The notes: generated from the letters alone by a model not told the origin. A stretch of DNA of 64,000 nt from Chiloscyllium plagiosum (GCF_004010195.1 NC_057757.1:7338610-7402609); one strand, 5' to 3'; numbered from the stretch's first letter, positions 11,430-64,000 are shown. Translations and numbers: made by a program.

Positions 11430-12328
11430 CTATTTAATGAATTTTAAAAGTAGAGCATGGGGAAATTTCACCACATTCTTCAACTGTTCTCTGAACTTCG
11501 TCTGTGTCACAGCATAAATGCAAGTATTTGTGCAGCAACTCAGGAGCTGGAGCATGAAGCCAATTTCTTGCAGAAAGGTAGGCAGCATTACTGAATCATA
11601 CCCTAAATACATCATTCGCCACCATATTGTGTAGACCATCAATATTGACCAGAGGAGGATGAAATTCGCTGATATAACAAATAATAAGACCATGGATTTC
11701 CTTCGACTGTCCATCTCTGCATCTCTAGGAGTCTCCCCACTGCTGTGACTTCGGAGTCTCTTTCGGGCTCTGCTGCTCACTAAAATGTGTCTGACAGTCA
11801 AAGCATTGAGCAGCACAATCAGAACAAATGGGATGGCTGGTGTTATAATATGATGAAGGAACTCGATTATTGTCCAGACGGTTGATTTCATAACATCGGA
11901 TGTCATATAGCAAAACCAGGGAAAGTTCTGAAGCCAATACTCATTTGTGAGCATAAAATACCAAAAAATGTTCTTTAAACAGCTCAGCACTGTTACTGTT
12001 CCCACAACCACAGCCGCCATTTTCTCAGTGCAGTATTTACATTTCAACTGATGGCAACAAATGGCTACAAATCGATCAAAGGTGAAAGTGACTGTCAACC
12101 ACACAGAACAGTCTGTGACTGTATGAAGTAAGATGGCATGGATATTGCACACTTTAACGGAAAATAGGAAAAAGAACTGTTCCCGATAAACAATTGGAAT
12201 CTGCCTCAGTATCAGATCAAAGATAATGACCAGCAGATCTGCTGCTGCCATGGCCACGAGATAGCAGGTGATACATTTAGAGAGACCACACTTTCCTTGA
12301 GCAAGTATTGCAATTGTCACTAAATTAA
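11430..12328 (-). CDS. GPR139/GPR142-like class A GPCR, copy 1, exon 2 (spliced protein 361 aa)
   Basis: Acceptor ccttcctaacag|TTAATTTAGTG; ORF 11430..12320 contains YLVAMAAADLL, TFTFDRFVAIC, ITPAIPF and CCTNTCIYA; in frame with exon 1 across a phase-1 intron. Confidence 0.92.
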
Positions 12329-13370
12329 CTGTTAGGAAGGAGAATAAAAATGGAGGTTAGACCTCAGACTTTTCAAATCCTTACCAGCTCTGTTTAAATT
12401 TGACTAGTATAGTATTTGGGATGAAAAGACACCTGAGGAATAACAGGTTATAAGAAATCAAATAAAGTTCACTGCTGAACTGACAGTCACATGTGAATAT
12501 GAACATTGTTTGAGTGTTAAAACAAGAGAACTAATCCTCTGTTGGATCAAATCGTGACCTCAATATCTCTGGGATAATTTACATGCAAAACATGTTAAAA
12601 TGCTGATGCTTATTACCTTTCATCTGAGTGAATATTGGAAAATCAACCTCGCTAGTGAATTAACTCACGTGTGTATTAATTAATGTTTCACAGCCATGCA
12701 TAATTCAACTCAACTCCTGAGATGTGTCTGTAAGCGTTGGTCTATTTGATACTGAACATTTGTTGCCATTGGAGAATACAATATATATTTTTCCCAAACA
12801 CTAGGAGTTCAGTTGGAGAATGATGCAGTGACAAATAAATGTTTGTGTGATCAAACTTTACTGCAATGCTTCACATGAGTAGAGGAGTGAACTCCTGGAA
12901 CTAGGATTCAGCAGTAAGAGCGACAAACCCCAGGAGAGGAGACTGCATTTCAAATCATTGCTAATCAAGTATAAATTTGATTGTTTCCCAATAAAGGAAT
13001 TCAAAATTTTAATGTTTCTTCTATTTTATATAATCAATATGAGGTATTATGGCCTGTGTAAATATTGATCTTCCAATGTGTTTATCAGTAATTTCCAAAG
13101 TGTTTACCTATCATTTTATCTGGACTATTCATCTGGCAGTTGTGTATTGACACTTGGAAAACATTGGAACTACACAAATGAGGTTGATGTAATGTTGCGA
13201 CTGAAGGTTTAATTTGATAGTGAACAAACTTTAAAATGACAAATTCATATATTATCGTCGATTTTTGGCTTGCATTTTGATAACTAGTTGGGGCACTCAA
13301 TGATAAATGGCAATTCAGAAGAACAGTCAGGAATGGTTTATCGCGTTGAGAGCTGTCTGGAGAGACTTAC

Positions 13371-38768: not shown

Positions 38769-39679
38769 TCAGTTATTTTGCTTATTAAGTAACTGAATGA
38801 TCAATGTAACTGGATATTTCATCGCGCTTTCCAGCTGCTCTCTGAACCTTGACTGTGTGACTGCATAAATGAATGTGTTTGTGCAGCAACTCATATTCCG
38901 CAGCATAAACCCAACTTGTTGAAGTATATATTCAGAATCATTGTAATCTCCGGGATAAGTTCCTGTTTTGATATAGTATAAGAAATCTATGATATTTACC
39001 AACCAAAGAAGGATGAAGCTACCAGAAATGGTGAACAGTAAAATGATAGACTTCCTTCTACTCTCTATCTCTGGGTCTCTTTGATCCTCTGCCATGCTCC
39101 GACCCCTCAGTCCCTTACGGATCCGATTGGTCACTAAAATGTGTCTGATGGTCAAACAGTTGAATAACAAAATCAAAGCGAATGCGAGAAATGGGGTTAA
39201 AATTGTATCAAACCAGTCAAAACCCAGCCACCCAGGGTCTGTATAATAACTTGACTTTGGGTGACAGTCCCAGGATACATTATTGATTATCCATCCAGGT
39301 TGAAGGATAAAGTAGAATGGGACATTTTTTAAACAGAGTATGGTGCAGGTTGTTGCTAGAACCACAGTTGCAATTTTCCTAGTACAATATTTTCTTTTCA
39401 GTTTCTGGCAACAAATGGCCACAAATCTATCAGAGGAGAAAGTGACGGTGAACCAGACAGAATAGTCTGTCGCTGCTCGATACAGGGCATAAGTAACGCT
39501 ACACACAGGGGTGAGGTCCAGGAAGGTTCCCAGGAAATAATAGTATTTCATCCGCCGCAGTATGACCTCAGTGATCATGACTAGGAGATCTGCCATTGCC
39601 ATGGCCACCAGATAGCGAGTGGTGCAGATTGAGAGGCCACATGTTCGCCTGGACAGGATCACAACTGCAATCAAATTAA
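38769..39679 (-). CDS. GPR139/GPR142-like GPCR, copy 3, exon 2 (spliced protein 325 aa)
   Basis: Acceptor ttccttgcag|TTAATTTG; ORF contains YLVAMAMADLL, TFSSDRFVAIC and CCTNTFIYA; the first ~38 aa of the track ORF 38769..39794 are intronic. Confidence 0.92.
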
Positions 39680-40420
39680 CTGCAAGGAAGAGTAGGGAAA
39701 AGAGACTGGAAATTAATCGATTAAATATTCTGTTCAGCCAGACAGGGGCACCACACCAAACAAATGTATGTGCCAGGTTCAATGCATGTACCAAAAATGA
39801 AAATGTGTTAACCTAATCACAGTCCCAGCTCCATCTCACTGACAGTTAGGTTTAATAGAGTCAGGACGCAGGTTAATAGGCAACGTCTCCCATTGAGGCC
39901 AGTTATGAATTTAAATATCTGAAATGGGTTTAATCTCTTAAATGGGTTTAACTTTTCTTCATTTGAACAGGCAGGTCTGTTGGGTTTCCAAGAAGTTTTT
40001 AAAATTTTCACTGGATGGAGATGAAGAGAGGTCCCTGGAGAAGATGAGCCACTTCAGAGTAATACTTGCAGTCGAGGAAATTCTCCCCACTGTTCCCCAT
40101 CCGAATCTGCCCATGGACTGTCAGACACACTGATACAGAGTACACCAATTTGGTGCAAGGGATCTCACAGATTCGACAACTTCCCTCTCTCACCCACATA
40201 AAAGTCAGATAACGTAAATTGGAAAGTTGCAAAGTAGAGATATATTTTCGTTGAGACCATTACTTTTAACAAGGGGAAGGGAAAAATAATGAATGATGGA
40301 CTGATTGAGCACCTATAGAGTGGCAAGCATTAAATAAGCGCACATCGACATCAGTCAGAGTAATACCAAAGAACAGTTCACAGCCCAGTTTAAACAACGT
40401 CCACAGGTACAGTCACTCAC

Positions 40421-43355: not shown

Positions 43356-43969
43356 TTCGATATAAACTCCACACTATCTATACTAATTTCTTTCATTGTA
43401 TCACAGACCTTCTCCGTGGTAACTATATCCATATCATCCCTCTCACTTGTGAACATTGACACAAAATATTCATTTTGAACAATACTATATCCTCTGGCTC
43501 CAGGCACAAATGGTTTGTAAAGGGCCTTGTTCCTCCTCTTGTTATCCTTTTACCCTTAATGTACCCAAAAAACAACTTGGGATGTTCTTTTATTTTTGCA
43601 TGTCAGTATGCTTTCTTCAGCTCTTCTAATTTAAGTTCCATCTTGCACCTACTGAACTACTCCAAGGCTTCTGCTGTTTTAAGTTTGAAGTCCTCTAATA
43701 GGTGAATGGAGATTCACCAGTTATTTCCTCTATCTCCTTCGCAACACCTTTGCAGCCACAAACACACAGACACAGTTAGGTAACTGCATCTGCATAAACA
43801 TGTCCACATAAATATATGAAAGAACACATTTAGTAATACACACAAGCACTGACATTCACAATGACAGAGACAGATTGGGAGAGAACCACACTGAGGTACC
43901 TCACATTCACAAACACATTTTATGCCGTTTATAGGTGGTGTTTCTATAATTATAAAATGTAATCCCCAG

Positions 43970-44410
43970 CCTTCACAACTCCCTCACCTCAGATGCCTCA
44001 CCCATAGTCAACACAGAATCCTTCATCCCAGTGTCCTGAGACCCCTCACTCTCAGTCTCCCCTGTACCCTGACCCTCATTCTCCACAGATTCCACACCCA
44101 CATCCTCCCAAGTGCCCTCACTCCCAGCATCTCCAGAGCCCTCACTCCCAGCCTGCCCAGACCTCTCACTCCAAATCTCCCCTCCCCACCCTCACTCCCA
44201 GTCTCCCCTGTACACTCACTCCCATTCTCCATAGATTACTCACCACAAACTCCCCAGAGCCCTCACTCCCACTCTGTGCAGACCCCTTACCCACAGCCTC
44301 CCCAGACCTCTCACCGCCAGCCTGCGCAGACCCCTCAAACCCAACCTACCCACAGCACACACACGCAGCCTCCACATCACCCTCACTCCCACTCCACCCT
44401 CCCCGCCCTC
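43970..44410. repeat. degenerate C-rich minisatellite (agaccctcactcccagcctcccc-like units)
   Basis: Repeated ccctcactccca motifs at roughly 20-25 bp spacing. Confidence 0.7.
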
Positions 44411-44714
44411 TATTTTGGCACCATGAGTAATCACTTTGATTCCTGACCCCCTTTTCTGCCCCATTCACAGGCTAGATGTCAGCCCACACACACTCACAAT
44501 GCTATTTTGGAACACTCGGGGAAGTGCCTTTTCCAAGTCTTTACATCACTCATCGATGTTTGTGTACTCTCTAGCATCACCACAGACCAAGGACCAAGTG
44601 ATACTGATGTTATATGAGGCTGGTTGTTATCGTCATTATTAGCGGGGACCTAGTGATGTTGTTGATGTTGTAGGATTTTGTGGACCGGCTTCCCCCCTTT
44701 TTTTATTTTTATTT

Positions 44715-47700
44715 TTATATTTTTTTGGTGGGGTTCGTCCAGTCCTTGTCTCGGTGGAGGATCTTATCGCACAGTTTACGGGTTTTAGCTCTCTTGTCAC
44801 TGAAGAGTTGTAAGAGTTCAAGTGTCAGTGACAGAGTGAGTCTTGATGTTTTTTGGGCGAACGTATCGTATCTTTCGATGCTAAGGAATTTAATGAGGCG
44901 GTTATTCATACCCAGCCACTTGCCTCGTGTGCCCATCATGAAGCCAAAGTATTTGGGGTCCGCGCCTCCCGTCAATTCCATGACCTCGGCATTTAGGTGA
45001 TTATATTTCTCGTGTTTCTCTTGCCATGCTGTTTCCAGTGCTTTACTATCATTCTCGTACCGCACTGTGACATCTACAAACGCGATCTTCTGGTCTTTTC
45101 TAAATATGAGATCGGGCTTCCATAGGGAACCGTTTTTGGCAAATAGCCTGGGCTCCACGTACGATGTCCAGCCATACTTACTGACTTGCTTCTGCAACTG
45201 GTCAGCGATCTTGTTATGGCGTTTTATTCGAGCATTTTTCACGAAAGGGCAGCATCCTGAGATGTGTGATATGGTCTCGTTTGCCATCTCACACCTTCGG
45301 CATAGTTTGGTTCGGTTTGGCCTTCCTCTAGATTGTGTGGCTCTTGTCGGGTATAGATTAAACCACGAGAGCATGCTGCTTATGAATCTAGAGGATTTTT
45401 GTTGTACTCCGGCTTTTGTCCAAGAATTAGAGATCTTGTCATCTCTAAAGTACTGGATGCCTTCCCCTTGACATTCCAGCTTTTGCCATTTTTCGAATTC
45501 CCACTCCACCCAGCCAGCATACCTCGCGTTTGCCTCCTGGAGTGCAGGCATGATGCCTTGGACGGCGGTCATCGGGTCGATTTTCCCTTCGCCGCTGCTG
45601 CAGTTACTGGGTTGGAAATTTTCAATTTCTTTGAGGACCTTGAGCTCGCGCAGTCCCGCAACGGTCTTTGTGTTGCTCTCACCTTTATATTGAAAGAGGC
45701 CCGAATGACCACACCACTGGACATGTCTGGTGCCTCACATTTGTGAACAATCGCGGATGGGATTTGCACCTCCAGTTTTGGGACGCCTGGACCGCCGTTC
45801 CTGTTGCTAGCGTATAGCACTCCGTCTGCGATATGAGGTGGTAGGTGTAGGAATTCTTTGGTGGCGTTGCGGATTATTTGGTCCAGCTTTGTGAGAGTAG
45901 CCTGTGACGCTTCTGTCAGGATCAGATGGAAGTACAATTGGGGGATGACATGTATCTTTAGGAGCTCCAGCCGTTGTCGTGGTCGGAGAGGTGCTGCCTG
46001 TATTCTTAAGCTTCTCCTCCCAGTCCCCTTCTGCCACACCTGCCCATGGATCGATCCGGGCACCCAGGTATTTCTCTGTGTCACCTGGGGGTATGTGGGC
46101 TATGGCTTCGTCCCGCAGCTTCCAGTTTGCGAAGTGATTGTACGAAAAGGTCTTCCTTTTAAAAGTGAAGTGGAATCCCTTCGTCTTCGCTGTGTTAATA
46201 CTGAGGCCTGGATGGTCACAGTATTTCTGGAGCAGCTTCAGTTTCCTAGCCATACCAGTGTGTGAGTCGCTTAGAAGGGCGATGTCATCCGCGAAGGCCA
46301 AAGTTGACTCTTCTGCCACCCAGGGGCATGGCGACCCCTGAGTTAGCCCTCTCCAGAGAGCACACCAAAGCGATGTTAAATAATATTGGTAAGAGTGGGT
46401 CGCCCTGCTTTATGCCCCTCTCGATAGTTATTGGGTTAAGTTTCCATTCCCTTCCACCACTATTGTGTTGCCAGTGTATAAGTCTTCGATGAGACTTACA
46501 AAGGCTTTGGGCAGTTTCACTCTTTGCAAAGATTTGATCAATAGCATGTGCCCAACCGAGTCAAACGCTTTTACTAGATCGACAAAGACAACCGCGAGGC
46601 CCTTACGATTGTACTTTGCTCCCTTGATGATGTTTTCGAGGACCACAATGTTTTCATTGCATCCGGGAGTGGCTGCTAGGAATCCCTTTTGCCTGGGGTT
46701 TATCTCGACTGTTTCACTCAGGCGTTTAGCCATTGTTTTCGTGAACAGCCAGAGCAGCATTGGACCGATGGTTATTGGCCGCCAGTTAGCAATGCTTTTC
46801 AAGTGTTCCTTATCCTCGCACTTAGGAATCAGGACCGTTCGACTCTTTTTTAGTGAATCAGGGATCATGCTTGACTTTAGCCATAAGGAGAAGAGGCGGG
46901 TTAGACGGGTTTCCTCCTGCTCATGGAGTGTTCTTATGTCCTGCAGTTTCAGGCCGTCTGGTCCGGCGGCACTGTTCTCGTCTATCCCCTTGATGGCCGC
47001 TTCAAGCTCCTCTACCTCTATGGGTTTCATCAAGGACCCGTCATCGACTTTGCCAGTGTATGGGGCATACTTATTTATGTTTGATTTCTTATTTGGTGCT
47101 GACAGTTTCTCACGGAAACATGACTCCACTTCCTCTCTTGATAGAGGACAAGCAGATGAGGTCGGCGCCCCCATGATCTCGCGAGCTAGTTGACGCTGGT
47201 TGGATTTGTAAAGCTGCTGTGTTGCTCTAAATTGCGCCTTACATGCTGCCCACCATGTTTTGGCTCCGGTATTGCTGCCGGGCCTTTTGTCTTTCTGGGC
47301 CCGATCTTTCTGGGGCCTCTTGTGTTTGCCCTGTCTTTTCCTACTATTCATTAGTAGGTCGGTAATACTCTCCACTAGTCCGATTCCAAGGGCAAGCGTG
47401 TCCAGGTCATTCCTCGCGCTCAAAAGCTCCTCAGCTTGTGTAAGCTGGTCATCTACGTCCCGATGTTTAGGGATCGAAGCCGGTGTTTTTCGGCTGGCTC
47501 TTTGGCGCTGGGCTTGGTCGTCGGAATTTCCCTGGACACTCTCTGCCTCAGAATCGTGCGAGTCTATACCCGTCGTTGGCTCGCTGATGTTCTTGACCTC
47601 CGTCGGGGTGTTTGCCAGGAGCCTGCGCTTGTCTGAGATTTGCTTTGGTGTTTTGGTTTTCAGGGTGCTAGCGATGGATTTGTTTATAAACTTGCATCCT

Positions 47701-48549
47701 GAAAATCTCACCTCTAATTCCCTCAGGAGTGCCACCTCCTCCCGTGACCATACGCGGTCGCTTCTCCCAGGTTTGCCCTTGACTTTGGGTGCCGGTTTGA
47801 GACGTCTCTCGTTTCGTAGAACCGGGTGTCTGTGCCTCTCGTGTTGACCAAGGCCTGATTGTGTTGGTCACATGCGCTGCATGTAAAGTCCTCAGTTGGG
47901 GGTTGTTTCACTCCTTCGCATTTTGGGTAATGGCAGGCTATTGAGTGGTATTCTCCTGCCTTATTGCAGCGTGAACATCTTGTTCGGATGTTCTTTATTC
48001 CGTGCACTTTAGGCACATGGGTCTTAAACATGCTCACCGTGGGGAAGAGGGTGTTGCAGTCCTTGCAGAACAGCCCATTGACGGGATAGTGGATGATTAC
48101 CTCCGAGACAGATGTTCTGTCACATACTGGCTCGATAACAACTCCTTCCATGAAGGCAGTTGCATCATCTGTTTCCTCGCCAGTCTCATTCATAGTCTTT
48201 TTTGTGTCTGTGCCCTGCTTTATATCTCGATAACTTTTGTTGTAGAAGGTTTGGGTGGTTATGCTTATCTCAACCACAGGGTGGGCTGCCCTTACAGTGC
48301 CTTCTTCAACGTTATCTTTGTTATTCGTTACAGGGTGAGCCGGCTCCCTGAGAGGGGTGACCAGTCTCAGCTCCATGTAAGGTAGGAGGTAACGTCTCAA
48401 GGTCTGGATGAGATGGACCTTGTTGCAGGTTTTATACATGTACAACCTAATGACTTGTCACAGCTCTCGGTTGTGGACGAGGCTGCGGGGAGGTTGTTTT
48501 TCTGGGACACTTCCCAGCCGGACTGCTCCGTTGAAAATGGAAGACTCAT
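44715..48549 (-). pseudogene. disrupted R2 ORF (pieces 48397..48624, 47723..48445, 46428..47735, 45807..46319, 45569..46084, 44715..45572)
   Basis: Consecutive minus-strand ORFs give the R2 domain order with several frameshifts; the start codon is uncertain. Confidence 0.85.
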
Positions 48550-48604
48550 ACTGGTTTTTTGAGAGCTGGTCAGTCTAGACCACATCCGTCTTGTACTTTT
48601 TCTG

Positions 48605-48762
48605 ATCGTTTGGTCACCCAACATCCAGGATTGCTGGGTTTACCGGCGGGGCCAGCGGGGAGGCACGACACACACTATGCGCCAAAAATACATGAAAACG
48701 TCATAGTCGGCAACTATGCCTCCTTGACCAAGGCAAGAAAGAGAGTCATAGTTACTCCCGCC
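48605..48762 (-). ncRNA. HDV-like self-cleaving ribozyme at the R2 5' end
   Basis: P1 GGCGGG/CCCGCC; P2 GUCGU/ACGAU; P3 GCC/GGC with L3 UCCCCGCU; P1.1 GG; P4 ACCCAGCA/UGUUGGGU; J4/2 GACCAA. Confidence 0.88.
48739..48762 (-). other. 24-nt 28S rRNA remnant (positions -28 to -5 of the R2 target site)
   Basis: GGCGGGAGTAACTATGACTCTCTT is identical to the conserved 28S sequence preceding AAGG|TAGCC; flanks are not rDNA. Confidence 0.92.
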
Positions 48763-49779
48763 AATGATGAGGTTCCAGCTTCCTCCCTGCTATCTCTCTC
48801 TCACTCATCACTGGATATGTTTGATCACACTGCAATAACTTGTGCTCCTCACGCTGCAATATCTATCAATCAGGATCGGGGAGAAGTGTTGCCTGTGGGT
48901 GATGTGTAATTCCATCCCAGTTTTCAAGCTGGTGTCTGGTCATGGCTTTGATGTTGTCTGAACTTTGATACTGTTTTTCAACTGTGATGACCTGTCCTAG
49001 CTTCCCCATTTGTTACAATTCCAGATTAAAGTTTTCAAGCCATTAAACTCCTGAGTGAGATGAAGTGGCTACTTTTGATTATAGGCCTCCTCCCTTCAAC
49101 CTTTGCAAGGAATTTCTTTTGGAATGATCTTTTTCTCCGAGACCCAAAATGACCTGAGGATTTGAAAGGTGCGAATTTTATCAGGATTCCTTGAATCAGC
49201 AAAAAGATTGAGGTTATTCATTACTAAATTCGAAAATGTATCATGTGATATTGCACATATGCACAGTTTAGAAATATAAAGTAGGTCTAAGGGCTGTGGT
49301 AGATAGCACGTTTTAGGAATGACCACGAGACACAGAGAATACCTCAAGATGATAAGCCTTTAGCTGCAAACAACAGCTATGGCCATCACAGCAGATGACC
49401 CTGAAAGCCTGTGAACTGTGAGCGTACTCTAATGTTTATGCTCTTCTAAAAACCACACTCCATCCCTGTTACATTAGCATAACCAATCGCACTAAGCCTA
49501 CGTTATATCCCCTTTAAACAATCAGATTCTGCCACAATTGTCTTCTGGATTGCTCCAGACCCTCACGTTGTGCGTGGTCATCTTTATTCACCTTTTTTCA
49601 CCTGACAGGCTGTAGTCACGCAAGACTGAACCAAACATGCAACCCAGATCTTACACTTACGGAACGTCTCAACATGTATTACTTTGAAGTTATATATTCA
49701 TATTTACCATTAAAACAAGACACAAGTTATAACTAAGGATAATATAGATATGGTCTGAATGCTCATGAAGGACAGGTAG

Positions 49780-62574: not shown

Positions 62575-63578
62575 CTACTGTTTCACTTGTGTCTGTTGGG
62601 AGTCTGGTGTAGCTATTACATTGAAGGACTGGGAAAAAATAAAAATGGTCCCCATCGCTATGTGCCTCTTAGCTATTTTGCTTCTTAAGTAACTGAATGA
62701 TCCAGTAACCGGATATTTCATTGTGCTTTCGAGCTGCTCTCTGAACCTAGACTGTGTGACTGCATAAATGAATGTGTTTGTGCAGCAACTCATATTCCGC
62801 AGCATAAACCCAACTTGTTGAAGTATATATTCAGAATCATTGTAATCTCCGGGATAAGTTGCTGTTATAATATAGTATAAGAAATCTATGACATTTACTA
62901 ACCAAAGAACAATGAAGCTGCCGGAAATGGTGAACAGTAAAATGATAGACTTCCTTCTACTCTCTATCTCTGGGTCTCTTTGATTCTCTGCCTTGCTTTG
63001 ACCCCTCAGTCCCTTACGGATCCGATTGGTCACTAAAATGTGTCTGATGGTCAAACAGTTGAATAACAAAATCAAAGCGAATGCGAGAAATGGGGTTAAA
63101 ATTGTATCAAACCAGTCAAAACCCAGCCACCCAGGGTCTGTATAATAACTTGACTTTGGGTAACAGTCCCAGGGTACATTATTGATTATCCATCCAGGTT
63201 GAAGGATAAAGTAGAATGGGACATTTTTTAAACAGAGTAAGATGTAGATTGTTGCTAGAACTACAGATGCAGTTTTTCTAGTGCAATATTTTCTTTTCAG
63301 CTTTTGGCAACAAATGGCTACAAATCTATCAAAGGAGAAAGCGATGGTGAACCAGACAGAATAGTCCGTTGCTGCTCGAAGCAGGACATAATTAACACTA
63401 CACACAGCGGTTAGGTCCAGGAAGGTTCCTGGGAAGTAATAGTAATTGATCCGCCACAGTATGACCTCAGCAATAATGACCAGGAGATCTGCCATTGCCA
63501 TGGCCAGCAGATAGCGAGTGGTGCAGATCGAGAGGCCACATGTTCTCCTGGATAGTATCACAATTGCAATCAAGTTAA
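62575..63578 (-). CDS. GPR139/GPR142-like GPCR, copy 5, exon 2 (exon 1 beyond the window; C-tail frameshift-extended)
   Basis: Acceptor ttccttgcag|TTAACTTG; open frame through all remaining TM helices (AFSFDRFVAIC, CCTNTFIYA); close paralog of copy 3. Confidence 0.85.
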
Positions 63579-64000
63579 CTGCAAGGAAAAATAGGGAAAA
63601 GAGACTGAAAATTAATCGATTAAACATTCTGCTGAGCCAGACAGGGGTCCAGCACAAAAGAAATCAGCATGTGCCAAGTTCAGTGTATATACCAAAAATA
63701 AAAATATGCAAACCTGATCACAGTCCCAGCTCCATCTCACTGACAGTTAGGTTCAATAGAGTCAGGGCATGGAGTAATTGGCAACATCTCCCACTGAGGC
63801 CGGGTTATGAATTTGAATATCTGAATTGGTTTGATTGTCTCTGATTTAAGTTTTCTTCCATTGAACACAGGGGCTGCTGGCTTTCCAAGACCTTTGTAAA
63901 AGGATCACTGGACAGAGCTGAAGACAGAAGATAAGCCACTCCAGGGTAAAGCTTGCAACCTTGGAAAATCTCTTCACCTCTCCCCCATCCATCTATTCCC

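Follow-up and report, generated by a model that had tools for sequence, protein, structure and literature searches.

R2 retrotransposons insert into the 28S ribosomal RNA gene at the site ...TTAAGG|TAGCC, and copies of such target-specific elements outside the ribosomal DNA (rDNA), with pieces of their target attached, have already been documented in insects. In the accessible part of the Drosophila survey (Stage and Eickbush 2009, PMC2718515), R1 elements located outside 28S retain 28S sequence, 7-28 bp from the upstream side at the 5′ end and at most 14 nt from the downstream side at the 3′ end, and often lie in repeated DNA; non-rDNA R2 copies are described as well, and are few, often incomplete and 1-2% diverged. 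Here we describe a copy of R2 in a stretch of 64,000 nt from the Chiloscyllium plagiosum genome (GCF_004010195.1 NC_057757.1:7338610-7402609), hereafter called the window, from whose first letter all positions are counted. Like the Drosophila elements, it represents an rDNA-specific type of element that lies outside rDNA with an authentic 3′ junction, and the same logic, by which the 28S sequence at the ends derives from a co-transcript, would apply to it. The Drosophila cases that bear a 28S leader at their 5′ end are R1 elements, of the apurinic/apyrimidinic endonuclease (APE) type, whereas the leader is carried here by an R2. In addition, there are tens of the copies described here, most of them full-length; they are old and have in common a 5′ end that is predicted to be defined by a ribozyme. 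The window copy is probably an old and decayed ectopic integration of a ribozyme-processed 28S/R2 co-transcript that was produced by a 28S-specific R2 of the A lineage.

The closest relatives in sequence are the vertebrate A-lineage R2 elements (R2Tg of zebra finch and the R2 protein chains 9nl2, 9nl3, 9nl4 and 9dou), which show the same domain order and give the best matches, and whose canonical CAAAA|TAGCC 3′ junction recurs in relic members of the family described below. The window copy is unlike them in lying outside 28S and in having a broken open reading frame (ORF), and the proteins are clearly diverged, as judged from alignments by eye. R2 elements of cartilaginous fishes were first reported in 2025-2026, according to the accessible parts of PMC12247875 and PMC13188248. 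Literature searches, together with the passages available from these two reports, gave no account of vertebrate R2 copies that are dispersed and bear a leader.

Two other bodies of work provide the framework for the comparison. The accessible text of Eickbush, Burke and Eickbush (2013, PMC3774820) gives position -28 of 28S, upstream of the insertion site, as the commonest R2 self-cleavage site, zebra finch included. It has been proposed there that the 28S leader on the complementary DNA (cDNA) anneals to the target, giving uniform junctions, and that 28S duplications arising now and then in tandem at the 5′ end are propagated and decay into an enlarged J1/2. Ribozymes resembling that of hepatitis delta virus (HDV) need nothing upstream of their first nucleotide, G1, according to the same text. 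Non-specific members of the R2 clade, R2NS-1_SMed and R2NS-1_CSi, are described in the accessible part of Kojima et al. (2016, PMC5035012) as copies with unrelated flanks that are >98% identical to their consensus, with no link to 28S reported in that part. As of that publication, R2NS was known only from flatworms and from no vertebrate.

An R2 copy with 28S sequence at both ends

The R2 copy spans 4,262 bp of the minus strand, from window position 48762 to 44501, and belongs to the A (three-zinc-finger) lineage. Its 5′ end at 48762 reads GGCGGGAGTAACTATGACTCTCTT, and its 3′ end reads ...GTGTTCCAAAA, with 44505 as the last base, followed by TAGC (44504-44501) and then by unrelated DNA. The leader (48739..48762, minus strand) is identical to the 28S sequence of the same genome, in which uninserted genes (L032, L040 and L042) read ...GGTAAAC GGCGGGAGTAACTATGACTCTCTT AAGG|TAGCCAAATGCC and continue downstream of the R2 site as AAGG|TAGCCAAATGCCTCG. 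Because it is identical to the genome's own 28S just upstream of the R2 site, the leader corresponds to 28S positions -28 to -5, with AAGG absent, and its first six bases form the 5′ strand of the predicted ribozyme helix P1. This 24-mer occurs 12 times in the 3.56-Gb assembly, and its reversed control does not occur at all. The TAGC at 44501..44504 (minus strand) matches 28S +1 to +4 by sequence comparison, and could have been copied from the co-transcript as a 28S tail or, alternatively, be microhomology with the target. The 28S pieces at the two ends, as well as the absence of AAGG, had been described correctly in the original prediction, which preceded this analysis and was made from the sequence alone; our own comparison with 28S agrees on both.

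The window copy does not occupy the ...TTAAGG|TAGCC site, and its flanks are non-ribosomal. At the gathering threshold, Rfam gives no rRNA match anywhere in the window, and a search at E up to 10 over 44400-48900 gives no rRNA, HDV-like or R2 RNA family; matches to mir-246 and SMAD5-AS1_3 (E >= 1) were discounted as chance. As had been claimed, the surroundings contain genes for G-protein-coupled receptors, three 7tm_1 ORFs being found at 11430-12356, 38769-39812 and 62575-63663. The upstream flank (48763..48766, minus strand) reads CATT on the element strand and may be the first copy of a 3-4 bp target-site duplication, since CATT is found again at 44501-44498, where it overlaps TAGC by one base, the last. 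For this putative duplication no empty site came to light, and among the contig joints listed none runs across the R2 element as an empty allele would.

The insertion is real and old. Its 5′ junction is bridged by contigs from three public runs that carry three organism labels (X1, label A; X13, label C; X9, label B), with 5 other letters in 234 for X13 and 31 in 438 (~7%) for X9. The 3′ junction is bridged in X1, while X5 extends only 29 nt into the element. Junctions bridged in runs of three organism labels are not the product of misassembly, which had been named at the outset as a possible refutation, and a 5′ junction common to the three labelled organisms indicates an insertion older than their split.

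The protein-coding part consists of a single R2 ORF remnant (44715..48457, minus strand, as are all its domains) in six frame pieces (48457-47723, 47867-46428, 46560-46285, 46409-45807, 46099-45569 and 45734-44715). Three N-terminal zinc fingers (C2H2, CCHC-type and C2H2; 47826..48067) were located by their motifs and by phmmer matches to R2Tg (9dou) and 9nl2 (E ~1e-9), the third being split by the first frameshift. They are followed by a Myb-like DNA-binding domain (47622..47750), aligned to residues 85-182 of 9nl3, and by the reverse-transcriptase core motifs AAGPDGL ... FVDLVKAFDSV ... RGIKQGDPL ... FADD (46272..46970; Pfam RVT_1). A C-terminal CCHC zinc knuckle (45249..45302) was recognised by motif and alignment, and the restriction-like endonuclease of the PD-(D/E)xK type by the motifs KPDLIF, FVDVTVR and EKHEKY (PD..D..K; 45003..45119), which align to residues 869-1111 of 9nl2 (E 4.5e-54). 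In phmmer searches against the PDB, the top matches are the vertebrate R2 proteins 9nl3, 9dou (R2Tg) and 9nl2, with E-values of 1.7e-69 for the Myb-reverse transcriptase piece, 4.5e-54 for the CCHC-nuclease piece and 1.2e-9 for the fingers; matches to R2Bm (1e-24 and 1e-13) and to LINE-1 ORF2p (1e-11) are far weaker. Judged by its protein sequence, the element is an R2 of the A lineage with the domain order that had been claimed for it.

The earlier description of the element as full-length holds for the DNA but not for the ORF, which is no longer coding-competent, five frameshifts lying between its six pieces. Four of these breaks are private deletions: 10 nt near 47862-47867 and 8 nt near 46302 (each absent from 5/5 relatives), 14 nt near 46005 (absent from five of six) and 1 nt near 45696 (absent from 7/7); the fifth break, between 46560 and 46428, falls in a region outside the relatives compared. 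Every relative compared has its own, different indels. Taken together with the four private breaks, this indicates that the window copy decayed in place, and it is now a dead fossil without sign of function.

A dispersed family with 28S-derived ends

In the assembly, the window copy belongs to a set of at least 40 dispersed relatives, spread over many chromosome-scale contigs. Queries made from its 5′ 391 nt and its 3′ 461 nt gave at least 43 matches and at least 42 matches of 66 candidates, respectively, at 67-94% identity; these family counts are lower bounds, the best 40 candidates having been scored per search. At least 15 loci pair a 5′ with a 3′ end in full-length copies of ~4.3 kb, and the closest relative among those scored is 94% identical to the window copy over 407 nt. 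No long open frame was found among the matches of at least 64% amino-acid identity, each of which has stops or a short frame.

The start of 28S similarity was measured at 30 5′ loci. It lies exactly at -28 (CpG-type changes allowed) in 14 of them and inside the leader, at -27 to -20, in another 12; three are ambiguous, and in one (L027) 28S continues for at least 60 nt upstream, the 5′ side being 89% identical to 28S over 141 nt. Upstream flanks of the 5′ loci are mutually unrelated. The -5 junction that lacks AAGG is found in all four subfamily-A copies, at different loci (L001, L002, L003 and L005), and, being common to the four, it must have been carried on the RNA rather than made locally. 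The absence of AAGG, which had been put forward as compatible with a loss of target specificity, is therefore no proof of such a loss. Copies of subfamilies B and C have two leaders in succession, a perfect outer one (-28 to -1) and then an inner copy that has decayed; in L004, AAGG overlaps GGCGGGAGTAACTCTGAC of the inner copy by two bases, and L013 begins at the inner copy. These arrangements are the same as in the 5′-extension model set out in the accessible text of PMC3774820, in which tandem 28S duplications decay into the element.

The first 158 nt of the window copy (48605..48762, minus strand) are predicted to form an HDV-like self-cleaving ribozyme with a nested double pseudoknot, the fold having been drawn from the family sequences. 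In this fold, helix P1 would pair GGCGGG (48762-48757) with CCCGCC (48650-48645), and P2 would pair GUCGU (48669-48665) with ACGAU (48609-48605). P3 (48664-48662 with 48653-48651) and its loop L3 (48661-48654) would read GCC-UCCCCGCU-GGC, and P1.1 would join GG (48644-48643) to CC in L3. P4 is drawn as an 8-bp hairpin (48638-48617), and J4/2 (48616-48610), of sequence UGACCAA, holds the candidate catalytic C. The string formed by L3, P3 and P1′ presumably resembles genomic HDV. In the model, the predicted cut falls directly 5′ of 48762 (G1), at what is also the modal genomic 5′ end.

An alignment of 14 of the 30 5′ loci is compatible with this fold. Twelve loci without a clear outer leader start or 3′ anchor were left out of it, and L004, L010, L013 and L021 were dropped by hand. 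All five helices are drawable and retained across the 14 copies; over the 24 predicted pairs, 92.5% of 332 cells pair, against 28-52% in controls with the partners shifted by 1-3 columns. Both sides have changed in five pairs, and at one pair of P4 a C-G is replaced by U-A in four copies. The start of P1 at 28S -28 and the long J1/2 loop are features of the R2 HDV-like ribozymes covered by the accessible text of PMC3774820, zebra finch R2 among them with -28 as the start of P1; unlike those ribozymes, the sequences presented here are new and the ribozyme is predicted only.

At the other end, the 3′ untranslated region (UTR; 44505..44714, minus strand, in the window copy) ends in ...GGCACTTCCCCGAGTGTTCCAAAA, a terminus that all 30 3′ loci of the family have kept. 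Immediately beyond it stands T in 29 loci, TA in 25 and TAGC in six, L057 being one of the six. At non-ribosomal sites, five copies have 28S tails of 4 nt; the tail of L057 extends to 14 nt and that of L062, with two mismatches, to 11 nt. When the assembly was searched by pattern for element ends that continue into 28S, six places came up, L057 among them. Much longer 28S sequence, decayed at CpG, follows the element end in L075 (62 nt) and in L076-L079 (>100 nt). L075 and L077-L079 match the 3′ region of the window copy at 73-83% and have the canonical CAAAA|TAGCC junction; at that identity they are members of the window element's family, and their 3′ junctions, together with the 5′ side of L027, indicate that the lineage once lived at the canonical 28S site. 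Between copies, no non-28S 3′ flank is shared except for flanks in a long interspersed nuclear element (LINE) and for one exact triplicate, so that no 3′ transduction from a dispersed donor is seen. As a separate observation, the base after TAGC is A in four of five copies (L043, which is window 44500-44504, L046, L047 and L052), where 28S has C. Three loci on different contigs, L070, L071 and L072 (G000:C28:50225047-, C17:28866015- and C1:68874276-), show 100% identity along 2.0-3.4 kb that take in an old 3′ half of R2, and reflect either a very recent segmental duplication or a duplication in the assembly.

The LINE flanks belong to a recurrent target. The same LINE site is found at 7/30 5′ loci (L011, L012, L015, L020, L023, L024 and L028) and at 7/30 3′ loci (L044, L048, L055, L056, L058, L066 and L069; L055 was relabelled as LINE by eye). 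Two of these 5′ and 3′ loci pair, which leaves ~12 of 43 distinct copies at a single position of one LINE reverse-transcriptase gene. The LINE, which we take to be CR1/L2-like, encodes the peptide ...FKKGSRDNPGNYRPVSLTSVVGK... at this position, and the uninterrupted site, the 20-mer CCTGGTAACTA|TAGACCAGT, has 36 exact occurrences in the genome. The flanks align from base 1 at 75-86% identity, the junctions vary, with the full leader in L011 and L015 and a joint inside TAACTA in L012 and L020, and the LINE-sited copies are scattered over the family tree; altogether, these features point to independent hits. The tree itself is comb-like and does not discriminate between a master in rDNA and a dispersed master. 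L078 (181 nt) was dropped from it and L076 had no match, and the placement of the copies embedded in 28S is unreliable, given the great length of their branches (0.4-1.5).

The LINE site shows similarity to both ends of the R2 RNA: it reads TAGAC where the RNA tail reads TAGCC, and its GTAACTA equals the leader bases at -21 to -15. On these likenesses, one can presume that priming at the site involves microhomology to both of the 28S-derived RNA ends. For R2Bm, the accessible part of Wilkinson et al. (2023, PMC10499050) shows that T(+1) is essential for nicking and describes a rare case of insertion outside 28S, at a site partly resembling the target, and both features have a counterpart here, given the T that follows the element in 29/30 3′ ends and the mimicry just described. 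Unlike what the RUM/RASIN model in that text would require, the LINE site has no TTNANN|T, and GTAACTA lies at the nick and not 14 nt upstream of it. Inspection by eye of the LINE site and of the window copy's flank likewise gave no evident TTNANN motif upstream of the nick. With GTAACTA directly at the nick and no TTNANN|T, microhomology to the RNA ends would fit better than recognition by the protein.

Origin of the dispersed copies

Integration from an rDNA donor, which we regard as the probable origin of the window copy, would proceed as follows. A donor copy in a 28S gene would be transcribed together with the rRNA, and the HDV-like ribozyme at its 5′ end, pairing 28S GGCGGG (-28 to -23) with CCCGCC of the element, would cut the co-transcript at -28. 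After the cut, the RNA would begin with 24 nt of 28S as a leader; the junction without AAGG would have been present in the donor already, and the 3′ end of the RNA would retain a few 28S bases. The R2 protein would then nick a non-ribosomal site before a T and reverse-transcribe the whole RNA, and the entire leader would be fixed without upstream 28S for cDNA annealing, since the non-ribosomal site offers the cDNA nothing to anneal to. Once inserted, the copy would have decayed via five frameshifts, and the same process would have produced the other fossils, which number in the dozens and of which roughly one in four lies at the LINE motif. Such a donor in rDNA would explain why copies start at -28 and carry 28S tails, why relics lie in 28S, why leaders are renewed and decay is private, and why young or intact dispersed copies are lacking. 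The original prediction had offered, as one of two readings, a rare off-target integration of a ribozyme-processed transcript; this is the best fit to the data except for the word rare, given that dispersed relatives of the window copy bring the number to at least 40.

Several points weigh against a donor in rDNA. No copy of subfamily A, B or C lies inside 28S in the assembly, in which dispersed copies far outnumber 28S-embedded ones. Exact leader 24-mers stand in a 28S context in 7 of their 12 occurrences, three of which are uninserted and four of which contain a different R2 family. The 3′ junctions with long 28S sequence all come from more distant TTTCAAAA-type copies. As the rDNA is barely assembled, with only seven 28S target sites, this is weak evidence, and we infer the location of the donor. 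The TAGCA found in four of the five TAGC copies is unexplained, with a chance of ~0.03 on a rough count. Furthermore, the leader/element junctions at -1, -5 and -11 could in part be internal deletions and not re-entries into 28S, and a ribozyme with a built-in leader could process read-through transcripts of any dispersed copy. As for the ribozyme, Rfam HDV models have no match in the region, the covariation is mostly modest, the copies being decaying pseudogenes, and the fold was derived from the same sequences.

Another source that can be envisaged, although we consider it unlikely, is a self-propagating R2 lineage with relaxed or changed targeting, whose read-through transcripts would be trimmed by the ribozyme to GGCGGG and which would prefer T/TAG sites and the LINE motif. 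The presence of at least 40 dispersed copies on many chromosome-scale contigs would suit such a lineage, yet a copy number in the tens is far under that of typical non-specific LINEs. A comb-like tree is as expected for a long-lived master lineage, recurrent independent hits at one LINE motif would reflect its preference, and subfamilies A, B and C are unseen in the 28S of the assembly; by contrast, 28S tails of 11, 14 and 62 or more nt can come only from donors inside 28S, and the 5′ end of L027 runs into 28S. The A of TAGCA in four of five TAGC copies could be a transduced base, but the copies have no non-28S 3′ flanks in common. Dispersed propagation would also be helped by a ribozyme that needs nothing upstream of G1, as stated in the accessible text of PMC3774820. 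Neither shared frame-breaking lesions among the copies compared nor any long frame at 64% amino-acid identity or above was found, although ectopic copies of another R2 family in this genome, described below, do keep long open frames.

The non-specific R2NS families of flatworms (Kojima 2016, PMC5035012, accessible part) provide a precedent for autonomous dispersal. Like R2NS, the family described here consists of R2 copies with unrelated, non-ribosomal flanks. Unlike R2NS, with its copies >98% identical to the consensus, it shows no near-identical dispersed copies, the closest pair reaching only 94%, and no young copies were seen. Nor is it independent of 28S, given its 28S-derived termini and tails, its relic members in 28S and L027. 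A count of dispersed copies that start at GGCGGG had been suggested as the means of telling a non-specific family from a single off-target event; many such copies with unrelated flanks were indeed found, but in view of the 28S tails, L027, the lack of shared 3′ flanks and the lack of long frames, this count does not discriminate between the two.

A further reading can be considered. In that case, a vertebrate A-lineage R2 would have a second natural landing site, at the LINE motif and at T/TAG sites, to which it would repeatedly be guided by the 28S-derived ends of its own RNA, at least part of the lineage propagating from non-ribosomal copies by means of leader and ribozyme, which would cut it out of host read-through transcripts. 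We hold this to be unlikely; if true, no vertebrate R2 before it would have shown targeting that is relaxed and in part directed by the RNA ends.

A move at the DNA level, in which a piece of rDNA is relocated by recombination or segmental duplication, or an artefact of assembly, is very improbable. Fragments of rDNA and relic 28S do exist on chromosome contigs (L027, L032 and L075-L077), but 28S similarity stops exactly at -28 and +4 in the window copy, and likewise at many loci, where arbitrary lengths would be expected, and the bridging of the junctions in independent runs with three organism labels already contradicts both variants. Copying of the R2 RNA in trans by another LINE (CR1/L2- or L1-type), in the manner of a processed pseudogene, is suggested by a LINE-rich genome and by the many copies within LINE but is just as improbable and already contradicted, as poly(A) and microsatellite tails are lacking, all 30 3′ ends coincide with the exact end of the R2 3′ UTR, followed by 0-14 nt of 28S, as is characteristic of R2 priming specific to its own 3′ UTR, and the copies are inserted in LINE coding sequence rather than fused to LINE 3′ ends.

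If the copies derive from an rDNA donor, the genome holds a natural record of R2 misses, with tens of mostly full-length ectopic copies. Vertebrate A-lineage R2 proteins are in development for gene writing into human rDNA, so that off-target sites matter practically. The relevance to R2-based tools that had been anticipated is thus real as far as a catalogue of off-target sites is concerned, but it is indirect, there being no evidence of a retargeted enzyme. This catalogue indicates that integration almost always takes place where there is a T at +1, that the whole 28S leader is retained where upstream homology is lacking and that a short LINE motif mimicking both RNA ends takes about a quarter of the events. 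An RNA 5′ end at -28 in vivo would also support the ribozyme model in a new vertebrate group. Given the insect precedents, the finding is a useful data point rather than a new principle; its contribution lies in a fossil series of unusual richness and in a LINE target that was hit repeatedly.

Other R2 copies in the same genome

A second A-type R2 family of ~4.7 kb resides in 28S (L034+L073, G000:C26:15863773-15870700), with 28S on both sides and a ...ATCAAA|TAGCC 3′ junction. This 28S-resident R2 was considered as the donor family of the window copy and rejected, blastn giving nothing beyond the leader and tblastn giving 33-58% amino-acid identity. Its 5′ end has at least 42 matches, of which ~9 have upstream 28S and ~3 start near -25, while most are leaderless and begin at the first bases of the element itself. 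Two copies of this second family lie outside 28S, L084 (G000:C16:22321900-22322500) and L085 (G000:C20:54991750-54992150); their ends comprise one 3′ end with a 6-nt 28S tail (TAGCCA) followed by unrelated DNA, and one leaderless 5′ end that abuts another repeat. In a protein search, both show long uninterrupted frames of >1,100 aa, which indicates that ectopic R2 insertion is confined neither to one family nor to old copies.

An off-site insertion is also found within the 28S gene itself. In L040 (G000:C99392:20953-23976), whose 28S sequence is confirmed by Rfam, the tail behind an R2 3′ end comprises 11 nt of 28S (TAGACAAATGC), and the junction with the 28S gene lies on the upstream side, ~152 nt from the canonical site. 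Elsewhere, L030 (G000:C31:11208202-11211481) and L085 place two R2 families within ~40 bp of each other in the same other repeat (...AACAAGCACCAAGACAT..GCTGGTG.GAGAAGG...), which may be a second recurrent landing site.

Two minor features were observed near the 3′ end of the window copy. Within the R2 3′ UTR, at window 44690-44730, there is a run that is rich in T on the plus strand and hence in A on that of the element, and that was treated as a repeat in the contig comparison. Just past the 3′ flank, window 43895-44446 consists of low-complexity CTCACTCCCA-like units that are open in two frames (183 and 140 aa), and this stretch is probably a degenerate tandem repeat rather than a gene.

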